NCBI GenBank assembly: GCA_963796055.1
Contig: CAWCKH010000004.1
Location: forward strand, 2,688,001-2,752,000
From: an uncultured delta proteobacterium
GTDB taxonomy: Bacteria > Myxococcota > Myxococcia > Myxococcales > Myxococcaceae
Direction of reading: 5' to 3'
DNA: 64,000 nt
Shown here: in pieces, positions 9,803-45,635 of the stretch
Layout of the letters: each line of letters opens with the position of its first letter
Position numbering within the stretch: the stretch's first letter is position 1
Notes under the pieces: generated by a model
Databases searched by the model: none
What the model was told of the DNA's origin: nothing
The model's input: only the letters and a program-made list of their open reading frames with translations
Position numbers and translations under genes: made by a program

Positions 9803-12800
9803 TCAAGGGAACGGCGGGGCGCCGGCGACGAACCCGGCCATCTGCATCTGAGCGTCGGTGGTCAGCTGCAATCCGTTGGTGAGGTCCGGGGCACCGCCGC
9901 AGGTCGCGCTGGGCGGCCGGAGCAGGAACGGGTGCCGGTTCCCGGGGTGGTTGCTCGGGTCGGAGCACGCTGGCAGGGCGTTGGTGTCGAAGGCGAACGG
10001 GGTGGAGCTGCCATTGAACTGGTAGGACCAGAAGGGGGCATCGTTGGTCACCGCGACCTTGACCCCGTCGGCCGTCGAGTCCCCCAGCGCCGCCTGCACC
10101 AGCTCGACCGTGGTCTGGTTCAGCACCACCTGGTCGCCGACGATCCACTGGACGAACGCGCGGCGCTTCGTCGGGTCGATGTTCGGGGGCAGCGGGGCGG
10201 GAAGGCTAGCCGAGTGGGTCAGGTAGTAGGAGGCGTTCACCGGGTCGGCCGGGTCGATGATCCACTTGGCGATGCCGAGGAACTGATCGTAGGTGGGCGA
10301 GTTCTGGGCGACGCCTTCCGCAGCAAGCCCGGCGACGAAGGCGTTCTTCTGCCCGGCGAAGCTCGGGGAGAAGAGCAGGTTGAAGATGTAGTCGGAGCCG
10401 GCGACGTTCAGTCCCGCGGTGCCAATCTCCGGAGCCACGGCCAGGTACAGCGTCCCGAGGAAGCTGCCCAGGCTCTGGGAAACGTAGCTCATCTTCGTGG
10501 GATCGAGCTTGACCGACGTCCCCGGCGGCGTGCTCAGGGTGAAGCCGGTGGGGCCGGTAGCCTGGATCACCCGCGCCAGCTGGGCGAGGGAGATGGTCTG
10601 CTGCCGCGCGTTGTCACGCGAGGCGAAGAGGTCGACCAGGTTGAGGAAGTTCCAGCCGGAGGTCGGGATGCTCACCCCGGGCCCGAGGGTGATGCTGCTG
10701 GCGAACCCGGCGCCGGTTCCCTCGCATTTGCTGTCCGGGGCGCAGGCGCCCTGACCGAAAGCGAAGCAGCCGAGATCCGCTGTCGCGGTGCCGAAGGCGC
10801 AGGCCGCGGGCCCGGTGCGGTTGGTGAGCTGGCAGCGGCCCACGGCATTGCACGTCTGGGTGGCAGGGTTGGTGCAGATTGCGGCGTCGGTAAAGGTGGT
10901 CTGTCCGGTGGCGAGGTTCAGGAAGTTGCCGAAGCCGGTGCAGCTGTTCCGGTCGCCGTGCCAGGGCAGGTCGATGGCGATCATCGCCCGGCCGGCCGCG
11001 GCGAGGGCGTTGGCGACGGCGTAGCCCGCGGTCTTGTTGCTGGCCAGCCCGTGGCCGAAGATCGTCACCGGCCATCCGTTCGCCGGCGCGGTCCCCGCGG
11101 GGATGGTGAGGATGAACGGGATCGGCCGGCCAGTGGCATCGGCCAGGCCCGGGGTGAAGTGGCCAGTGTTCAGGGCCCAGAGGTCTACGCTCTCTCCGGC
11201 CCAGAACGCGCTGATCGCAGCGTGCGGGACACCCTGGGCGTCGAGCCCCGGAACCACCGCGGCGGTGGCATCGACGATCCACAGCGGGGCGGCAGGCACG
11301 TTGGCCAGGGTCGGCGCTGCGTGGAGCTGCGAGAGCGTGGAGACCGTACTCTGGGTGGTGAAGGCCCAGGCGAGGGCGACCTTCTTTCGCGGCAGCCCGT
11401 TCTGAGCGAAGTTGTTGAACAGCGGCTCGAGCCCGGCCCGCAGCTGCTCGAGCTGCTGCGCCTGGTCATCGGTGAGCAGGCTCACCGTGCTCTTGCCGTT
11501 CGCATAGAGCGGCGCCGAGGAGCGCGCCAGCGCGAAGGCCGGACTGGGGATGACGGTCTTCCCCGAGCTGTCGACGAGATCGGTGGTGATGTAGATCGCG
11601 TACCGGGTGCGCTCGGTGAGCGGGAGCCGCGGGACGATCTCCAGCGTCTCGGGCTTGACGCCGCCGTCGAGCAGCGTCGGGCTGACGGTGCAGTTCACGC
11701 AGCCGAACGCGTTGAGCGGTGCGCCGGTGCCAGCACCCCTGCTGCTCCCGGGGACCGCGAGCATGTTGATGGGACTGCTCGGGCCCAGGGTGTACGGGGT
11801 CCCGGGCAGCGTGCCCTGGATCAGCGCGGCGGTGCTGGTTCCGTTCTCGCTGACGACGGGCGCGCTGTTGGAGAACCCGTCCAGAGTGTTGAGGCCGTCG
11901 ACCAGCGCGTCAGGTAGCCCGACCCCCTTGGGGAACTGCACGCCGCCGTCGCTGCCGAGCAGGATGTCATTGGGGAAGGGAATGATGCTGTGGGCCGGAT
12001 CGAACGTGACCTCGGCCGCGCTGGTGATGGTGAAGGTCCAGGCCAGCGCGATGTCGCTCCTGTCCAGGCCAGGGACGGTGGCCAGCGCGCCGTCGATGAT
12101 CGGCTTGTAGTTCAGCCGGAGCGCCTCGAGCTGCTTGGCCAGCGCGACTTGCTGCTGGTACGCCTTGGCCGGATCCTTCTCGGTGGTGGGGATGGCGCTG
12201 GTCTGGACGACGCAGTTGTTCCCGGTGGCGTCACAGGTCACCAGCGGCGTGGGGCTGATGACCAGCGCCCAGGTGGCCGATCCGGTCACCGTCTGGCCGC
12301 TGCTGGCGCCCTTGATGCCGTTGGCACCGCCGAGGATCATCACCGCGTAGTGGCCGCTGGTCGGACCGCGGCGTTTCCAGTAGCCGCTCTTGGGCAGGAT
12401 GTTGAGGGCCATGCCCCCCTCCGCCGTGGGTGCGGTGGTGATGTTCACGTCGGTGACCGGGAGCGGGTTGGCGGTGCTGATGTCGAACACCGCCAGGTTG
12501 CCCCCGGCGGTCGGGGTGAAGAGCTGGATCGAGGTCGGGTCGATGGGCTTGTCGAACAGCGCCGTGGCCGTCGACTCCATCGGGAACCCGTCGAGCAGGT
12601 TCAGGTAGTCCCGGTTGAACTCGTTCTGGGCTTCGGTCCCGCCGGTCTCGGGCGCATGGAGGAAGACGTCCGGCTGCCCGTTGGCGTCGAGGAAGACCAG
12701 GTCGTTGGGGAGCGGGATGACGCTGTGGGCCGGATCGAACTCCGCCTCCACGTACTTGGTGGAGTTGTTCGGCCCGATCGGAATGTCAGGGCTGCACGCG

Positions 12801-39590: not shown

Positions 39591-40313
39591 TCAATGCCCT
39601 CCGGACACGGCCATGGCGGTGCCCGCCAGCTCGCGCCCGACGATCCGGCCGTCGGCCAGCCTCACCACCGCGTCGGCATGGGACATGACCTTGGCGTCGT
39701 GGGTGGAGAAGATGAAGGTGGTCCCGTCGCGCTGGTTCATCTCCTTCATGAGGTCGATGATCCGCTCGCCGGTCTCGGAGTCCAGGTTCGCGGTGGGCTC
39801 GTCGGCCAGGACGATCTGCGGGTTTCCCACCAGCGCCCGCGCCACCGCCACCCGCTGCCGCTGCCCGCCCGAGAGCTCGTTGGGGCGATGGCGGGCGTGG
39901 TCGGCCAGTCCCACCTGCTCGAGGAGGGTCATGACCCGGGCGCGCCGCTCGTGCCCCCGGAGACGTCCCTGGAGCAGGAGCGGGAACTCGACGTTCTGGA
40001 AGACGCTGAGCACGCCCACCAGGTTGAAGCTCTGGAAGATGAAGCCGATGGTGTCGAGCCGGAGCCGGGTCAGCTCTCGCTCGCTCAGCGCGGCGGTGTC
40101 GTGGCCTGCCACCCACACCGTGCCCCGCGTCGCCACGTCCACGCAGCCGATGAGGTTCAGCAGCGTGGTCTTTCCGCTGCCGGATGGACCAGCGATGGAG
40201 ATGAACTCGCCGGTGTGAACGTCCAGCGACACACCCCGGAGGGCCGGGACCACGGTGGTCCCCAGCTGGTACTCCTTGACCACGTCGACGATGCGGACGA
40301 TTGGCTCGCTCAC
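39591..40313 (-). CDS. ABC transporter ATP-binding protein (LolD/MacB-like)
   Basis: GPSGSGKTT, FIFQSFNL, LSGGQRQR, LADEPT and STHD. Confidence 0.95.
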   Translation of the reverse strand: MSEPIVRIVDVVKEYQLGTTVVPALRGVSLDVHTGEFISIAGPSGSGKTTLLNLIGCVDVATRGTVWVAGHDTAALSERELTRLRLDTIGFIFQSFNLVGVLSVFQNVEFPLLLQGRLRGHERRARVMTLLEQVGLADHARHRPNELSGGQRQRVAVARALVGNPQIVLADEPTANLDSETGERIIDLMKEMNQRDGTTFIFSTHDAKVMSHADAVVRLADGRIVGRELAGTAMAVSGGH

Positions 40314-40568
40314 GGTGCTCCTCGCGCCGAGGAACGGTGCTACCGGGCGCGACGTCTCGCGTCAACGAGAGTCGTGGGGAGGTCCTCTCGCAGCAGAGTC
40401 ACGTTGCAGGCGCGTGAAGTTTGGTGAAGGCACGTGGGGCGCCCGGTGCCTCCGTGGGACGACGGTCGCAACGGTTCATGCCAGCCGGGGCGCACCCGGC
40501 CGGCCTGCGCGGCCCCGACGCTCAGGGGTTGGAGCGAGCTGGCGCGGAGGCTTCCCAAAAATCAGAAG

Positions 40569-40587
40569 TTTGCTTCCGGGAAGCAAA
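40569..40587. promoter_or_regulatory. Perfect 19-bp palindrome TTTGCTTCC-G-GGAAGCAAA in an AT-rich patch
   Basis: 9-1-9 inverted repeat, with a degenerate second copy at 40601-40620. Confidence 0.55.
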
Positions 40588-40791
40588 TACTCTCCGGAAC
40601 TGCTTGCATGCAGGAAGCAATCATTTTTTCCAGAAGGCAGGCTCCCCTCGCCGTCGGGCGCGGGCGCGGCTGCTTCAGGTCGGCGGGCGGGCGATCGGGC
40701 GTGCCGTGCTCGTGAGTGCGCCGGCAGCCCGGTCGAACGGCGAGCCTCATCGGAGGCCCTGGGACCGTCGCCCGTGCATGGCAGCCAGGGG

Positions 40792-41100
40792 TCAGTGTGG
40801 CGTTGGGCGGGGTGGTTGCGTGGTCGGCGGAAGATCGGGCCGCGGCGGAGGGCTGGGGGTCTCGGGGGAGCGCGTCGACGGTGGCGTCTCGCTCCCCGTT
40901 CCCACCGGGGCGGTGGTTTGTGTCCTCGGCGCAGGGAGCCCGGCTCCGGTCGGTGGTGGGGCAGGCCGGTCCGGGACAGTCGTCCCCTTCGTCGTCGTCT
41001 TCGTCCCCGCGTCGGGGGTCGCCCGGCGTGGACCTCCGTCCGGCTCCGCGGTCGCCAGGCCGGAGACGCAAAGCGCGGTCAGCAGCAAGCGGGCGGTCAT
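40792..41100 (-). CDS. Small secreted Pro/Thr-rich protein
   Basis: GAGGAGG RBS, signal peptide MTARLLLTALCVSGLATA|E, PDGG/PDAG motifs, low complexity. Confidence 0.55.
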   Translation of the reverse strand: MTARLLLTALCVSGLATAEPDGGPRRATPDAGTKTTTKGTTVPDRPAPPPTGAGLPAPRTQTTAPVGTGSETPPSTRSPETPSPPPRPDLPPTTQPPRPTPH

Positions 41101-41196
41101 CGGGCTTCCTCCTCTCGGGCACGGTCTCTGCACTGCCCCCCGGAACATAGGAACCCGGGGCCGCGCTGCCGCCTCCCTCGGGTCAGGAGGTGAACG

Positions 41197-41796
41197 GTGG
41201 AGACACCCTGGACCTCGGCCCGACCGCCGGCGCGCATCCTCCCGGCGCCGGTCATGGACGCACGTGACCAGGCCCGGGACGTCCTGGGCGTTGCCCAGGC
41301 CCGAGCGGCGGAGCTGATCGCCGAGGCGGAGCACGAGGCCGAGTCCATCCGGAGCGCCGCGCGCGAGGCTGGGCGCGACGAGGGGCTCGGCTACGCGCAG
41401 CGACTTCTGGTCGAGATCCAGCAAGCGCGGCTGCGGACCCTGGAGGGGGAGGCGCTGGGCCGCAGCGTGTCCGAGCTGGCCCTGGCGATGACCCGCCGTG
41501 TCCTCGGTGACGCCTGGGAGGCGGAGCCGGGCCCGTGGATCCGTGCGGTGCTCGAGGTTGCGGCCCCGCTCCGTCGTTCGGCGGCCCTCTCGCTCCGGGT
41601 GGCGCCGGCGGATGCCCCGGCCGTCCGGGAGCGGCTGTCGACGGAGATCGCCGCGGGCACGGTGGAGGTGGCCGAGGACCCGGCGATCGGCGAGGCGGGC
41701 TGCGTCGCCATCTCCAGCTGTGGCCGGGTGGACGGCCGGCTCTCGACGATGCTGGCGGCCTTCCGCGGCCCGCTCGGGCTCGAGGAGCCCGGATGA
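41197..41796 (+). CDS. FliH/SctL-family type III ATPase stator
   Basis: AGGAGG RBS, helical A(x3)A run ending AREAGRDEGLG, then LRVAP.D, EDPAIGEAGC and GRVDGRL. Overlaps the ATPase start (ATGA). Confidence 0.82.
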   Translation: METPWTSARPPARILPAPVMDARDQARDVLGVAQARAAELIAEAEHEAESIRSAAREAGRDEGLGYAQRLLVEIQQARLRTLEGEALGRSVSELALAMTRRVLGDAWEAEPGPWIRAVLEVAAPLRRSAALSLRVAPADAPAVRERLSTEIAAGTVEVAEDPAIGEAGCVAISSCGRVDGRLSTMLAAFRGPLGLEEPG

Positions 41797-43088
41797 CCGC
41801 GCCGACGCCCGTCGACGCGGTGCGCTCGGTCCGGCCCTTCCGGCTGACCGGCCGGGTGGAGCTGGTGCGCGGCCTGCTCCTCGAGGCCACGCTTCCGGGC
41901 GCCCGGGTCGGAGAGGTGGCGACCATCACCGATGCCCGGACGCACGTGCTCGCCGAGGTGGTGGGGTTCGCGGGCTCGCGGGTCCAGCTCCTCCCGCTCG
42001 GCAGCGCCACCGGCCTGGGCGAGGGCGCGGAGGTGGCGAGCCGGGGGGAGGCGCTCACCATCGGAGTGGGACCGGGGCTCGTGGGGCGGGTGCTCGACGG
42101 CCTCGGCCGCCCCATGGATGGCAAGCCTCCGCCTCCCGGCCTGGTGCACTGGTCGGTGGACCGGCCGTGCCCCGAGCCGTTTCGCCGTGCTCGGGTGGAC
42201 CTGCCGCTCCCGCTCGGGGTCCGCGCCATCGACGGGTTGTGCACGGTGGGGCGCGGGCAGCGGCTCGGTCTGTTCGCCGGTGCAGGGGTGGGGAAGTCCA
42301 CCCTCCTGGGCCAGATGGTGCGGCACACCCGGGCGGAGGTGACGGTGGTGGCGCTCGTCGGCGAGCGTGGGCGCGAGCTCCGCGAGTTCGTGGAGGACGC
42401 CCTCGGTCCTCGGGGCCTCGCGCGCAGCGTGGTGGTGTGCGCGACCTCGGACGCGCCGGCGCTGGTACGGCTCCGCGCGGGCTTCGTCGCCACGGCGATC
42501 GCCGAGTGGTTCCGCGAGCAGGGAGGCAACGTGCTCTTCCTCCTCGACTCGGTGACCCGGCTGGCCCGGGCGCAGCGCGAGGTGGGTCTCGCGGCCGGCG
42601 AGCCGCCCGCACGGCAGGGCTACCCGCCGTCCGTCTTCTCGATGCTCCCGCGGCTCCTCGAACGGACGGGAAACTCGGCCGGCGGACACTGCACCGCGCT
42701 CTACGCCTGCCTGGTCGCGGGCGACGACATGGAGGACCCCATCGCCGACGAGGTGCGCGGCATCCTCGACGGGCACGTGGTGCTCGATCGGCGCATCGCC
42801 GAGCGCGGGCGCTGGCCGGCAGTGGACGTGCTCGCCTCGCTGTCGCGGGTCATGCCGCAGGTCACCACCGAGGAGCACCGGCGGCTCGCGGCGCGGTTCC
42901 GGGAACTGCTCGCGGCCTATGAGCAACGGCGGGACCTCATCCTCCTCGGCGCCTACGCGCCCGGGAGGGATCCGCTGACCGACGAGGCCATCGCCCGTCA
43001 GCCGGCGCTGGAGGCGTTCCTGGCGCAGGGACGGAACGAGCCGGCCGGGAAGCTGCTGGAGCGGATGCGGAAGGCGGTGGAGGGATGA
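41793..43088 (+). CDS. FliI/YscN (SctN) type III secretion ATPase
   Basis: GRGQRLGLFAGAGVGKS, VGERGRE, DSVTRLARAQRE, GEPP..QGYPPS, ILDGHVVL and SLSRVM. Confidence 0.95.
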   Translation: MTAPTPVDAVRSVRPFRLTGRVELVRGLLLEATLPGARVGEVATITDARTHVLAEVVGFAGSRVQLLPLGSATGLGEGAEVASRGEALTIGVGPGLVGRVLDGLGRPMDGKPPPPGLVHWSVDRPCPEPFRRARVDLPLPLGVRAIDGLCTVGRGQRLGLFAGAGVGKSTLLGQMVRHTRAEVTVVALVGERGRELREFVEDALGPRGLARSVVVCATSDAPALVRLRAGFVATAIAEWFREQGGNVLFLLDSVTRLARAQREVGLAAGEPPARQGYPPSVFSMLPRLLERTGNSAGGHCTALYACLVAGDDMEDPIADEVRGILDGHVVLDRRIAERGRWPAVDVLASLSRVMPQVTTEEHRRLAARFRELLAAYEQRRDLILLGAYAPGRDPLTDEAIARQPALEAFLAQGRNEPAGKLLERMRKAVEG

Positions 43089-43558
43089 GTGCCCTGCGTA
43101 CGCTCCGGCGGATCAGGACGGAGGCGCGCGACGGTACCCAGGAGGCCTTCGCCCGCCGGCTCTCGGAGCTGCGCCTCGCCGAGGAGCTGCTGCGGCGGGC
43201 GACCGCACGGTGGCAATCGCAGCGGGACCGTGTCACCGGCCGTGCCGAGGCACGGCTCTCGGTGCTCGGGGCGGGGGAGGCTGCGGGGAGCGCGGTTCTC
43301 CACGCCCGGCACGAGTCACGGCTTCGCAAGGAGCTGGAGACCCTCGCCTTCGGGCGGGACGTGGCACGCCGGGAGCTCACCATGCGATCGACCCGGAGGG
43401 ACGAGGCGCACGATGCCCTGGAGCGCGCCGAGGCCAGCCTGGCAGTGCTGGAACGGCTGATCGAGCGGCGGGAAGAAGAAGCACGGAGTCGGCGGCTCCG
43501 GCGCGAGGAGCAGCTGCTCGAGGCGCATCCGAGCGGTGGGGTGCAGGGGATCGGCTGA
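43085..43558 (+). CDS. FliJ/SctO-like coiled-coil stalk protein
   Basis: 157-aa charged helical protein that overlaps the ATPase stop, which is the canonical position for fliJ/sctO. Confidence 0.62.
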   Translation: MSALRTLRRIRTEARDGTQEAFARRLSELRLAEELLRRATARWQSQRDRVTGRAEARLSVLGAGEAAGSAVLHARHESRLRKELETLAFGRDVARRELTMRSTRRDEAHDALERAEASLAVLERLIERREEEARSRRLRREEQLLEAHPSGGVQGIG

Positions 43559-44129: not shown

Positions 44130-45635
44130 CTACAGCTCGTCGAGGAACTCGTCGTTGTAGGTGTAGCGCGACAGCCGCTTCACCAGCGCCTCCATCGCCT
44201 CCACCGGCTTCACGCTGAAGAGCATCTGCCGGAGCTTCTTCACCTTCTCGTACTCCTTCTGGGTGAAGAGCTTCTCCTCCTTCCGCGTACCCGACTGGGG
44301 GATGTTGATCGCCGGGAAGATGCGCTTCTCGGCCAGGAGCCGGTCGAGGGTGATCTCGCTGTTCCCGGTGCCCTTGAACTCCTCGAAGATCACCTCGTCC
44401 ATCCGGCTTCCGGTGTCGATGAGCGCGGTGCCGACGATGGTCAGCGAGCCAGCCTCCTCGGTGGCCCGCGCGGCGCCGAAGATGCGCTTGGGGCGCTCCA
44501 GGGCACGGCTGTCCACGCCGCCGGTGAGGGTGCGGCCCGAGCTGTCGACCTCCTTGTTGAAGGCCCGCGCCAGCCGGGTGATGGAGTCGAGGAGGATCAT
44601 CACGTCCTTTCCGCTCTCCACCATGCGGCGGGCCCGCTCCAGCGCCAGCTCGGCCACCTTCAGATGGTCACCGGTGGGCCGGTCGTTGCTCGAGGCCAGC
44701 ACCTCGGCCTTGATGCTCCGGCGCATGTCGGTGACCTCCTCGGGACGCTCGTCGACCAGGAGCACCATCACGTGCATCTCGGGATGGTTGGTGAGCACCG
44801 CCTGGGCAATGCGCTGGAGCATGATGGTCTTGCCGGCCTTGGGCGGGGAGACGATCAGCGCCCGCTGGCCCTTGCCCAGCGGGGCGATGAGGTCCAGCAC
44901 CCGGGTCACCATCTCCTTGGGCCCGTGCTCGAGCCGGATGCGCTCCACCGGGTCGATGCTGGTGAGGTCGTTGAAGTGGGGGAGCCGCGGCGCACCCTCC
45001 ACCGGGCGGCCGTCGACGGTCTCCACGCGCTGGACCAGGCCCTTCTGTCCGCGCATCTGGGCCATGGCAGTCACGTACTGGCCCTGCCGGAGCCGGAGCT
45101 TTTGCACCAGGTTCTTGGGGAGCTCGGCGTCCTCGGGACCGGGCAGGAGGTTCCGGCGGATCTGCCGCAGGAACGCGTTGGGGCCCTTGGCCTCGGTGTC
45201 GAGCACGCCCTCCACGGCCACCAGATTCGGCTGGGCCTGGACCGGAGGCGGCCGGGGGGCGCCGGCCGGCGCCTGCTGCCCGGGCTGTGGCTGCTGCTGC
45301 TGGCGCGCCTGCCACTGCTGCAGCTCCTGAGGGGTGAGGAAGACCTGGTTCTGCTGGCCGTCCGGGCCGGTGAGCATCCGGTAGGCCTGGCCCTCGGGAG
45401 TGAAGAGGACCGGAGCGCCGCGTCCGCGGCGGCGGCGGCGGCGGCGGCGGCGGCCGGGGCCGGGCCCCTGGCCAGGAACCGGGGCGGGACCTCCGCCCGG
45501 GCCGGCGGTCGCGCCAGGAGCCGTCTCGGGCTCGTCGGGACCGTCGTCCGCGCCGTCGTCTCCGTCGGCTTCGGGAGCCTCGGGCGCACCGGCCGGGGCG
45601 GGGAGGCTGTCGAGGGTGTCGTTGTCGTTGCTCAT
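44130..45635 (-). CDS. rho: Transcription termination factor Rho with an atypical N-terminus
   Basis: PLGKGQRALIVSPPKAGKT, LVDERPEEVTDM, LDSITRLARA, TGGVD and FEEFKGTGNSE. Confidence 0.95.
   Translation of the reverse strand: MSNDNDTLDSLPAPAGAPEAPEADGDDGADDGPDEPETAPGATAGPGGGPAPVPGQGPGPGRRRRRRRRRGRGAPVLFTPEGQAYRMLTGPDGQQNQVFLTPQELQQWQARQQQQPQPGQQAPAGAPRPPPVQAQPNLVAVEGVLDTEAKGPNAFLRQIRRNLLPGPEDAELPKNLVQKLRLRQGQYVTAMAQMRGQKGLVQRVETVDGRPVEGAPRLPHFNDLTSIDPVERIRLEHGPKEMVTRVLDLIAPLGKGQRALIVSPPKAGKTIMLQRIAQAVLTNHPEMHVMVLLVDERPEEVTDMRRSIKAEVLASSNDRPTGDHLKVAELALERARRMVESGKDVMILLDSITRLARAFNKEVDSSGRTLTGGVDSRALERPKRIFGAARATEEAGSLTIVGTALIDTGSRMDEVIFEEFKGTGNSEITLDRLLAEKRIFPAINIPQSGTRKEEKLFTQKEYEKVKKLRQMLFSVKPVEAMEALVKRLSRYTYNDEFLDEL
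45426..45452. repeat. (CGC)9 trinucleotide tract encoding Arg9 in Rho
   Basis: Perfect GCG x9 on the + strand. Confidence 0.9.

Follow-up and report, generated by a model that had tools for sequence, protein, structure and literature searches.

What does a type III secretion motor drive when no export apparatus accompanies it? A stretch of 64,000 nucleotides from an uncultured member of the Myxococcaceae (contig CAWCKH010000004.1 of assembly GCA_963796055.1; hereafter the window) encodes SctL, SctN and SctO, the stator, ATPase and stalk of a system for type III secretion (T3SS), as three adjoining genes at 41197..43558. A preliminary description of the window had listed them as ATGA-coupled, had reported no other T3SS gene in the window, and had proposed either a cluster reduced to its motor and repurposed, as an unfoldase or as the energiser of another machine, or a split system acting in trans. 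Our analysis favours the latter: very probably, a single L-N-O motor is shared between two kinds of export locus in the order and has been kept in the source genome to serve the shorter of the two in trans.

A motor and an export apparatus at two sites of one contig

Family scans and the sequence itself bear out the coordinates and identities of the three genes (Table 1). Two ATGA overlaps, read in the sequence, join sctL to sctN and sctN to sctO, and the order is that of a T3SS ATPase complex, with the FliH/SctL stator upstream and the YscO/FliJ-like stalk downstream of sctN. SctN is covered by the FliI/YscN model TIGR01026 above its cut-off, its top-scoring model is TIGR02546 (SctN; 563 bits, below the cut-off of 604.75), and its nucleotide-binding and catalytic motifs, as known from F1 and SctN enzymology, are intact (Walker A at residue 163, GERGRE at 190, the Walker B region at 250 and SLSR at 349). 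The top NCBIfam model of SctL is TIGR02499 (SctL; 55.6 bits, below the cut-off of 78.7). SctO gave no Pfam or NCBIfam match in family scans of its 157 amino acids (aa); a three-sequence profile from the genus matched a five-sequence profile of its positional counterparts in relatives (hhalign 87.6%, E 3.5e-6), two of which five match the YscO-like family PF16789 at E about 1e-38.

In the source genome (G000; 5.53 Mb in 7 contigs, 98.5% complete), SctR, SctU and SctV each occur once and lie together at C4:2427013-2431784, on the same contig and 297 kb to the left of sctL. The whole export locus (C4:2423267-2431784) is without L, N and O and reads, in order, a 129-aa F-like open reading frame (ORF), SctI-like, SctJ, a diverged ORF, SctQ, FliO-like, R, S, T, U and V, followed by genes that we take, partly from their sequences, to be ihf, rbn and rng. 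R, S, T, U, V, J and Q are supported by Pfam and NCBIfam matches; for the SctI-like rod, MxiI is the sole PDB match of a profile (E 0.08), and orthologues match PF17001 weakly. Apart from the sctN of the window, no T3SS or flagellar export ATPase was found in the genome, where the next match is 36% identical; nor was a match to flagellin or a second FlhA-type gene. The absence of an export apparatus from around the motor thus holds for the window, since the genome's SctR, SctU and SctV matches all fall outside it, and does not hold for the genome.

The C4 locus is the 'short' Myxo non-flagellar T3SS locus of Abby and Rocha, T3SS(2) of Myxococcus xanthus. It is conserved across families with its gene order and its ihf-rbn-rng neighbourhood, and none of the 10 short loci read has L, N or O. 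The ORF between sctJ and sctQ is diverged in short loci, with 90-170 aa (L013:4839-5357 here). In G007 the locus is interrupted (L089, G007:C19), with about 19 kb and unrelated genes separating the F-like gene from sctQ. Flagellar genes that the source genome lacks are present in two members of its genus, G010 (C140) and G003 (C149), each of which has an additional, FliI-like ATPase some 12 kb away from an FlhA-like gene.

A single SctN for two export loci

In order to see how the motor is distributed, 91 genomes of the order, each at least 92% complete, were searched with SctN and the short SctV; the matches were classed by hand as short, long or flagellar from identity, score and position, and the flagellar ones were set aside. 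Exactly one non-flagellar SctN was found in 61/91 genomes and two in none. Both loci are present in 30 genomes, each of which has one SctN and not two. The short locus alone is present in 31, among which 28 have SctN, so that 58 of the 61 short-locus bearers carry exactly one non-flagellar copy, and 3 genomes have the long locus only. The remaining 27 genomes have no non-flagellar SctV, and a non-flagellar SctN was found in none of them.

The position of the motor points the same way. In the closed genome G017, a long cluster (T3SS* in M. xanthus) lies between the same ABC ATPase and rho genes that flank the triplet in the window, in the order F-like, TPR, I, J, FliG-like, L, N, O, P, Q, FliO, R, S, T, U, chaperones, V, and the short locus of this genome has no L, N or O. 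The long cluster adjoins the same ABC gene in G013 and G068 and lies at other sites in G019 and G104. The much larger T3SS cluster that the preliminary description placed, for M. xanthus, in an ABC...rho neighbourhood is therefore present in relatives (G017, G013, G068). At the site in the window, no long-locus gene other than L and N was found, the export-gene matches falling in the short locus, and a tblastn search with the G017 long-locus proteins matched only L, N and a generic FHA gene in the window. The export apparatus, FliG-like gene, SctP and chaperones that surround L-N-O in a long cluster are thus missing from the window. G007, G008 and G010 share its layout, ABC-L-N-O-membrane-rho, and G061, from another genus, has ABC-L-N-O with rho some 7 kb further along, its one export locus being a short one. 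In family f7, rpoC-sigma-L-N is found in 13/13 loci read, with an O-sized ORF next in 11, and in four closed genomes a distance of 1.0-1.8 Mb separates L-N from the short sctV. The gene orders of G021 and G041 (low-GC loci L081, L082, L130 and L131) were left out of this reading. As side observations on the long locus, the gene after sctJ (L074:5485-6885) has FliG domains (E 3e-7), and a fliO-like gene is kept in both short and long loci.

An RpoC tree of 25 genomes (of 30, four with split or partial RpoC copies were left out and one had no match) nests the source genus among bearers of the long locus and makes G061 sister to three genomes with both loci (Shimodaira-Hasegawa-like approximate likelihood ratio test, SH-aLRT, 99). 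Since the tree places them apart, the source genus and G061 represent two separate reductions to L-N-O. That exactly L-N-O was retained repeatedly after loss of the predation cluster speaks for a short system that is active and receives its energy in trans.

How one motor would serve the short system

In canonical T3SS, SctL ties the SctN ring to SctQ, and SctO couples SctN to SctV. L-N-O is very probably the working ATPase module of the one type III system that this organism has in scattered form, with the short, T3SS(2)-type locus encoding the part in the membrane. By analogy with the canonical systems, the N-terminus of SctL would dock on the SPOA domains of the short SctQ and hold the SctN hexamer beneath SctV, SctO would couple SctN to SctV, and ATP hydrolysis would strip chaperones and unfold substrates, which SctRSTU would export. 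Where relatives have both loci, both machines are most likely driven by the single L-N-O set that lies within the long T3SS* cluster; the source lineage would have shed the remainder of that cluster and kept what the short machine still needs. Gene content, synteny, co-occurrence and purifying selection were observed directly, whereas expression, physical assembly, export and the nature of the substrates are inferred.

In a complex model, residues 215-370 of the short SctQ with residues 1-45 of SctL scored 0.62, compared with 0.00 for the best of three controls; the pass mark was reached by 116 of 157 solved pairs and by 2 of 215 mismatched pairs. Runs agreed in at least 95% of contacts with a partner predicted local distance difference test (pLDDT) value of at least 74, and the contacts centre on SctL residues 9-17, the predicted SctQ-binding stretch.

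Candidate substrates would be the SctI-like rod, the F-like protein and a NolX-repeat protein. The last is encoded at a third T3SS-like locus (L194:4375-6608; C4:2240375-2242608), where a 586-aa protein with NolX repeats (PF05819, E 2e-7, above cut-off) and an F-like C-terminus is followed by a TPR protein similar to the long-locus chaperones. This locus was matched in 24/29 family genomes, with the chaperone adjacent in 28/30 loci read; searches for the 586-aa protein found nothing in 28/28 f7 genomes. We regard the protein as a candidate export substrate.

Evidence that weighs against a shared motor, and the origin of SctN

Several points weigh against this reading. The genome has only two secretins and two PilC/GspF-type genes, assigned to a type II system and to type IV pili by their neighbourhood beside gsp and pil; no third secretin that could be dedicated to a T3SS was found. 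Matches to the FHA-like family PF16697, by which SctD was sought, number 26 in the genome, and none lies in the short locus or the L-N-O operon. The pair of secretin SctC and ring protein SctD that marks a canonical injectisome was thus not recovered from either locus, and export may stop in the periplasm or use another channel. Three short-locus genomes, in assemblies of 440-730 contigs (G078, G084 and G103), gave no SctN match. The tally over 91 genomes is a hand classification of kin that are not independent, for which reason we give no test statistic. Complexes like that of SctQ with SctL have already been solved, so that the model shows likeness and not binding by this copy. Finally, approximately unbiased (AU) tests on amino acids reject the source-genus SctN within the clade of its own family (p 0.014) and at its species-tree position (p 0.0009), and a narrower clade is still rejected after 4- and 6-class recoding (p 0.048 and 0.010). 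For the source genus, the description of L-N-O as a remnant of the long locus therefore rests on synteny. That history is firm for G061, whose SctN fits the remnant position (AU p 0.57), and the reading of function is independent of it.

The SctN trees, which are quick trees, separate the source-genus protein from myxobacterial FliI with 100% support; together with SctN as the top model, if under its cut-off, and the lack of a flagellin match in the genome, this supports a non-flagellar lineage. The same trees, built on amino acids, put the source genus outside all long-locus SctN, which raises the possibility of the same function in trans with another history: the L-N-O of the genus would be a 'short-type' motor, either older or acquired, with kinship to the f7 operon, and around it the long cluster would have been assembled or exchanged. 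Of 29 sites that distinguish long-locus from f7 SctN, 17 carry the f7 residue in the genus and 8 the long-locus one, and the AU test tolerates a clade of genus and f7 (p 0.45). We nevertheless consider this origin unlikely, if a serious contender: the ABC...rho synteny with the long locus is exact, the RpoC tree nests the genus among bearers of the long locus, many of the shared residues are shifts to GC-rich codons, and recoding into 4 or 6 classes lifts the rejection of the family clade (p 0.51 and 0.33). The shift to GC-rich residues is common to the source genus and f7, the share of G, A, R and P in SctN being 0.425 in the genus, 0.472 in f7 and 0.326 in long-locus copies; the source-genus protein is 61-67% identical to the long-locus copies of its family. 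This alternative concerns history only, and its probability is not to be added to those of the functional alternatives below. As a separate observation, L-N-O resembles the short locus in amino-acid composition where a genome has that locus only (high G, A, R and P), and the long locus where that is present (L118-L119, L077-L078, L074-L076).

Other functions for the motor

The triplet sits at the T3SS* site, and in the portion of PMC12075869 available to us the SctN of T3SS* is reported to localise with Kil at prey contacts; L-N-O could thus be the partner of a Kil/Tad pilus when prey is killed, the role that T3SS* has in M. xanthus. We give this little credence. The Tad marker RcpC was found in 15/16 other family genomes and in 0/6 genomes of the source genus, the source genome has no T2SSF-type or secretin gene beyond the two PilC/GspF-type genes and two secretins described above, and the long export genes are absent. 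Kil-linked prey killing is therefore unlikely in the source genus, and the link to prey killing drawn in the preliminary description, which was made through M. xanthus, is weak here.

Selection was measured as the ratio of nonsynonymous to synonymous substitution rates (dN/dS) with a Nei-Gojobori script against nine genomes of the genus. The nine pairs gave 0.08-0.16 for N, 0.18-0.34 for L and 0.13-0.24 for O, ranges that overlap that of the short-locus genes (0.10-0.37, two genomes); rho gave 0.07-0.11 (four genomes). In other genomes of the genus, SctN, SctV and the F-like gene were each found in 11/12. With dN/dS at 0.08-0.34, L-N-O is not decaying, and the decay that a dN/dS near 1 would have indicated finds no support. 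A slow decay of L-N-O and the short locus as relics is accordingly very doubtful in our view: all these proteins are shifted to GC-rich residues, as expected under relaxed selection or low expression, and T3SS(2) genes are described, in the accessible part of PMC10196010, as down-regulated on prey and unneeded for killing, but against this stand the low dN/dS in all nine pairs, the retention in 11/12 genomes and the conservation of the short locus across families.

Repurposing of the motor, whether to unfold proteins on its own or to energise another machine, is highly improbable, for although the operon stands physically alone and L and O are diverged (L is 24-36% identical to L of other genera), a motor-less export apparatus lies in the same genome, L-N-O was never found where the export apparatus is missing (0/27), L retains its predicted SctQ-docking stretch and the operon holds no new partner gene. 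Since a cognate export apparatus minus L, N and O lies at C4:2423267-2431784, the idea of a cluster reduced to its motor gives way to that of a split system acting in trans.

Needle-like genes in both loci

The first gene of the short locus (C4:2423267-2423656; L013:3267-3656) is unannotated and has a dN/dS of 0.10 against G010. The last 40 residues of its F-like product are conserved across Myxococcales and weakly resemble needle subunits. A six-frame blind search with T3SS_needle_F (PF09392) at E up to 0.05, where about 4-5 chance matches are expected, matched 20/91 genomes, 2 of them above cut-off, compared with 1/14 controls, below cut-off. The 20 loci comprise 12 F-like genes at the head of the long locus, 5 F2 genes, 1 stand-alone F-like gene of f7, 1 rod and 1 apparently unrelated sequence, and many of them stem from two genera of close kin.

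With a C-terminal profile (A4), needle proteins hold 7 of the top 8 PDB ranks, the matches to 7y6c_F (E 1e-4), PrgI (0.07) and MxiH (0.85) running in register to the last residue. The PDB labels 7y6c_F a needle co-chaperone; its chain of 43 aa is presumably the C-terminus of a needle. A4 included rows chosen through PF09392, and a profile of 13 positional F C-termini chosen without a needle model (A12) found no needle in the PDB. Because A12 and other profiles find none, the needle matches of A4 depend on its added F2-type rows, several of which were picked with PF09392. No needle was among the 14 weak PDB matches of a full-length F profile (A1), and a profile of 124 of the 150 listed representative matches (A7) had no PDB match; in a Pfam scan of these 124 sequences, T3SS_needle_F matched 7, HrpA_pilin 8, HrpF 9 and an unrelated helical family 8, all below cut-off. 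A PDB search with the F-like protein as a single sequence returned V-ATPase noise only, and fold searches with AlphaFold models of this protein (pLDDT 52) and of a 74-aa relative (pLDDT 65.5) were uninformative.

A4 detects exactly two genes in 12/12 f7 genomes, which adds a second F-like gene there, and none in 5/5 genomes without a non-flagellar T3SS. It also revealed multi-copy ORFs of 72-74 aa, the size of SctF. A four-row profile of these ORFs, one row of which is itself a weak PF09392 match, matches 7y6c_F (E 7e-5) and links to A12 at 97.4%. Among ESM Atlas neighbours, PF09392 occurs in 11-32% of members (13-32% for the 72-74 aa ORFs). Within the long locus, G068 has two (L137:9251-9475 and 11666-11890) and G085 three (L245) identical or near-identical copies of the ORFs, all on the reverse strand; two more in G021 (L246) and one in G104 (L248) lie on contigs that may be linked to the locus.

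As relatives of SctF, the myxobacterial F-like genes are, on these sequence comparisons, a good lead and not a result. Taken further, the lead would mean that the myxobacterial T3SS is not needle-less: both loci would encode SctF-derived subunits, two paralogous machines would share one L-N-O motor, and the short system, kept in the source genome although T3SS* and Kil are not, would form a filament or periplasmic rod of its own that does something other than Kil-linked prey lysis. We hold this extension to be possible and lean slightly against it. The SctF-derived forms would be three, one of 130-180 aa before sctI, the multi-copy one of 72-74 aa in long loci, and a large, chaperoned one with NolX repeats.

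Features around the motor

Both the Shine-Dalgarno-like AGGAGG and the GTG start of sctL are conserved in 4/4 aligned genomes of the genus, and a scan for sigma-70 promoters between 40300 and 43700 found none. Upstream, a small divergent ORF at 40792-41100 (-) has a hydrophobic start, a low-complexity tail and no Pfam match; similar DNA is present in G010 and G008 and, more weakly, in G007. About 300 bases at 40400-40640 are unique to the source genome among the four aligned, and their AT-rich part contains an inverted repeat at 40563-40587.

Table 1. The L-N-O operon and the genes that bound its site (positions in the window)
Feature	Position	Strand	Basis or remark
ABC-transporter ATPase, left landmark of the long T3SS* site (non-T3SS gene)	39591..40313	-	PF00005
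AGGAGG, Shine-Dalgarno-like	41185..41190	+	6 nt 5' of the sctL GTG start
sctL (FliH-like stator/linker, 199 aa)	41197..41796	+	PF02108, E 2.5e-11, above cut-off
sctN (FliI/YscN ATPase, 431 aa)	41793..43088	+	TIGR01026 above cut-off; motifs intact
sctO (YscO/FliJ-like stalk, 157 aa, diverged)	43085..43558	+	Profile match to positional homologues
rho, right landmark of the long T3SS* site (non-T3SS gene)	44130..45635	-	PF07497 and PF00006

Relation to known systems and implications

Long and short Myxo loci were described by Abby and Rocha in 2012 (PMC3459982), who, in the available part of the paper, argued that they are functional, stated SctF to be absent and counted the ATPase among the genes that the two variants share; Figure 5 there may perhaps already depict a separate sctN for Anaeromyxobacter. 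In M. xanthus, the excerpts at hand give T3SS* (the long locus) as MXAN_2434-2464 and T3SS(2) as MXAN_5643-5654, both clusters being named in PMC10196010. T3SS* is called needle-less in the accessible text of five of the six sources PMC12075869, PMC10433427, PMC10196010, PMC12428579, PMC11509652 and PMC10849154. Our literature search, which covered few subscription papers, brought up no publication that deals with a shared motor or SctF homologues in myxobacteria.

The system described here shares with the Myxo short locus the export apparatus, SctJ, SctI-like rod, SctQ, gene order and lack of a dedicated secretin. It differs from that locus as published in being the sole export apparatus of its genome, in having its motor as a separate operon at the long-locus site, and, where SctF was stated absent, in a conserved first gene with an SctF-like C-terminus. 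With M. xanthus T3SS* it has the chromosomal site and the L-N-O order in common, whereas the other long-locus genes are missing from the source genome and no Tad/Kil marker was found in the genus. The scattered T3SS of Chlamydiales and Hamiltonella, as presented in the portion of PMC3459982 seen, likewise spread one injectisome-type system over several loci; those systems have a secretin, and the split in the source genome apparently arose from two paralogous machines that shared a motor, one of which was then lost. Flagellar FliH-FliI-FliJ are a homologous stator, ATPase and stalk, but the source SctN groups apart from FliI, and the genome gave no flagellin match and no second FlhA-type gene.

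The short myxobacterial T3SS is little studied and has been treated as degenerate or without known use. The retention of L-N-O amounts to a natural deletion experiment, and short-only strains offer a clean place to seek the function of the short system. If the gene order of M. xanthus matches that of its relatives (sctQ being MXAN_2445 in the part of PMC10196010 at hand), gene counting indicates that the mxan_2438-2451 deletion, as given in the accessible text of PMC12075869, takes out the only motor of both systems; by the same counting, SctN-YFP in M. xanthus would report on both. If myxobacterial loci do encode SctF-derived subunits, the published SctF-less intermediate in injectisome evolution needs revision, and if the SctF-like genes are true needle subunits, delivery by the 'needle-less' T3SS* becomes directly testable.

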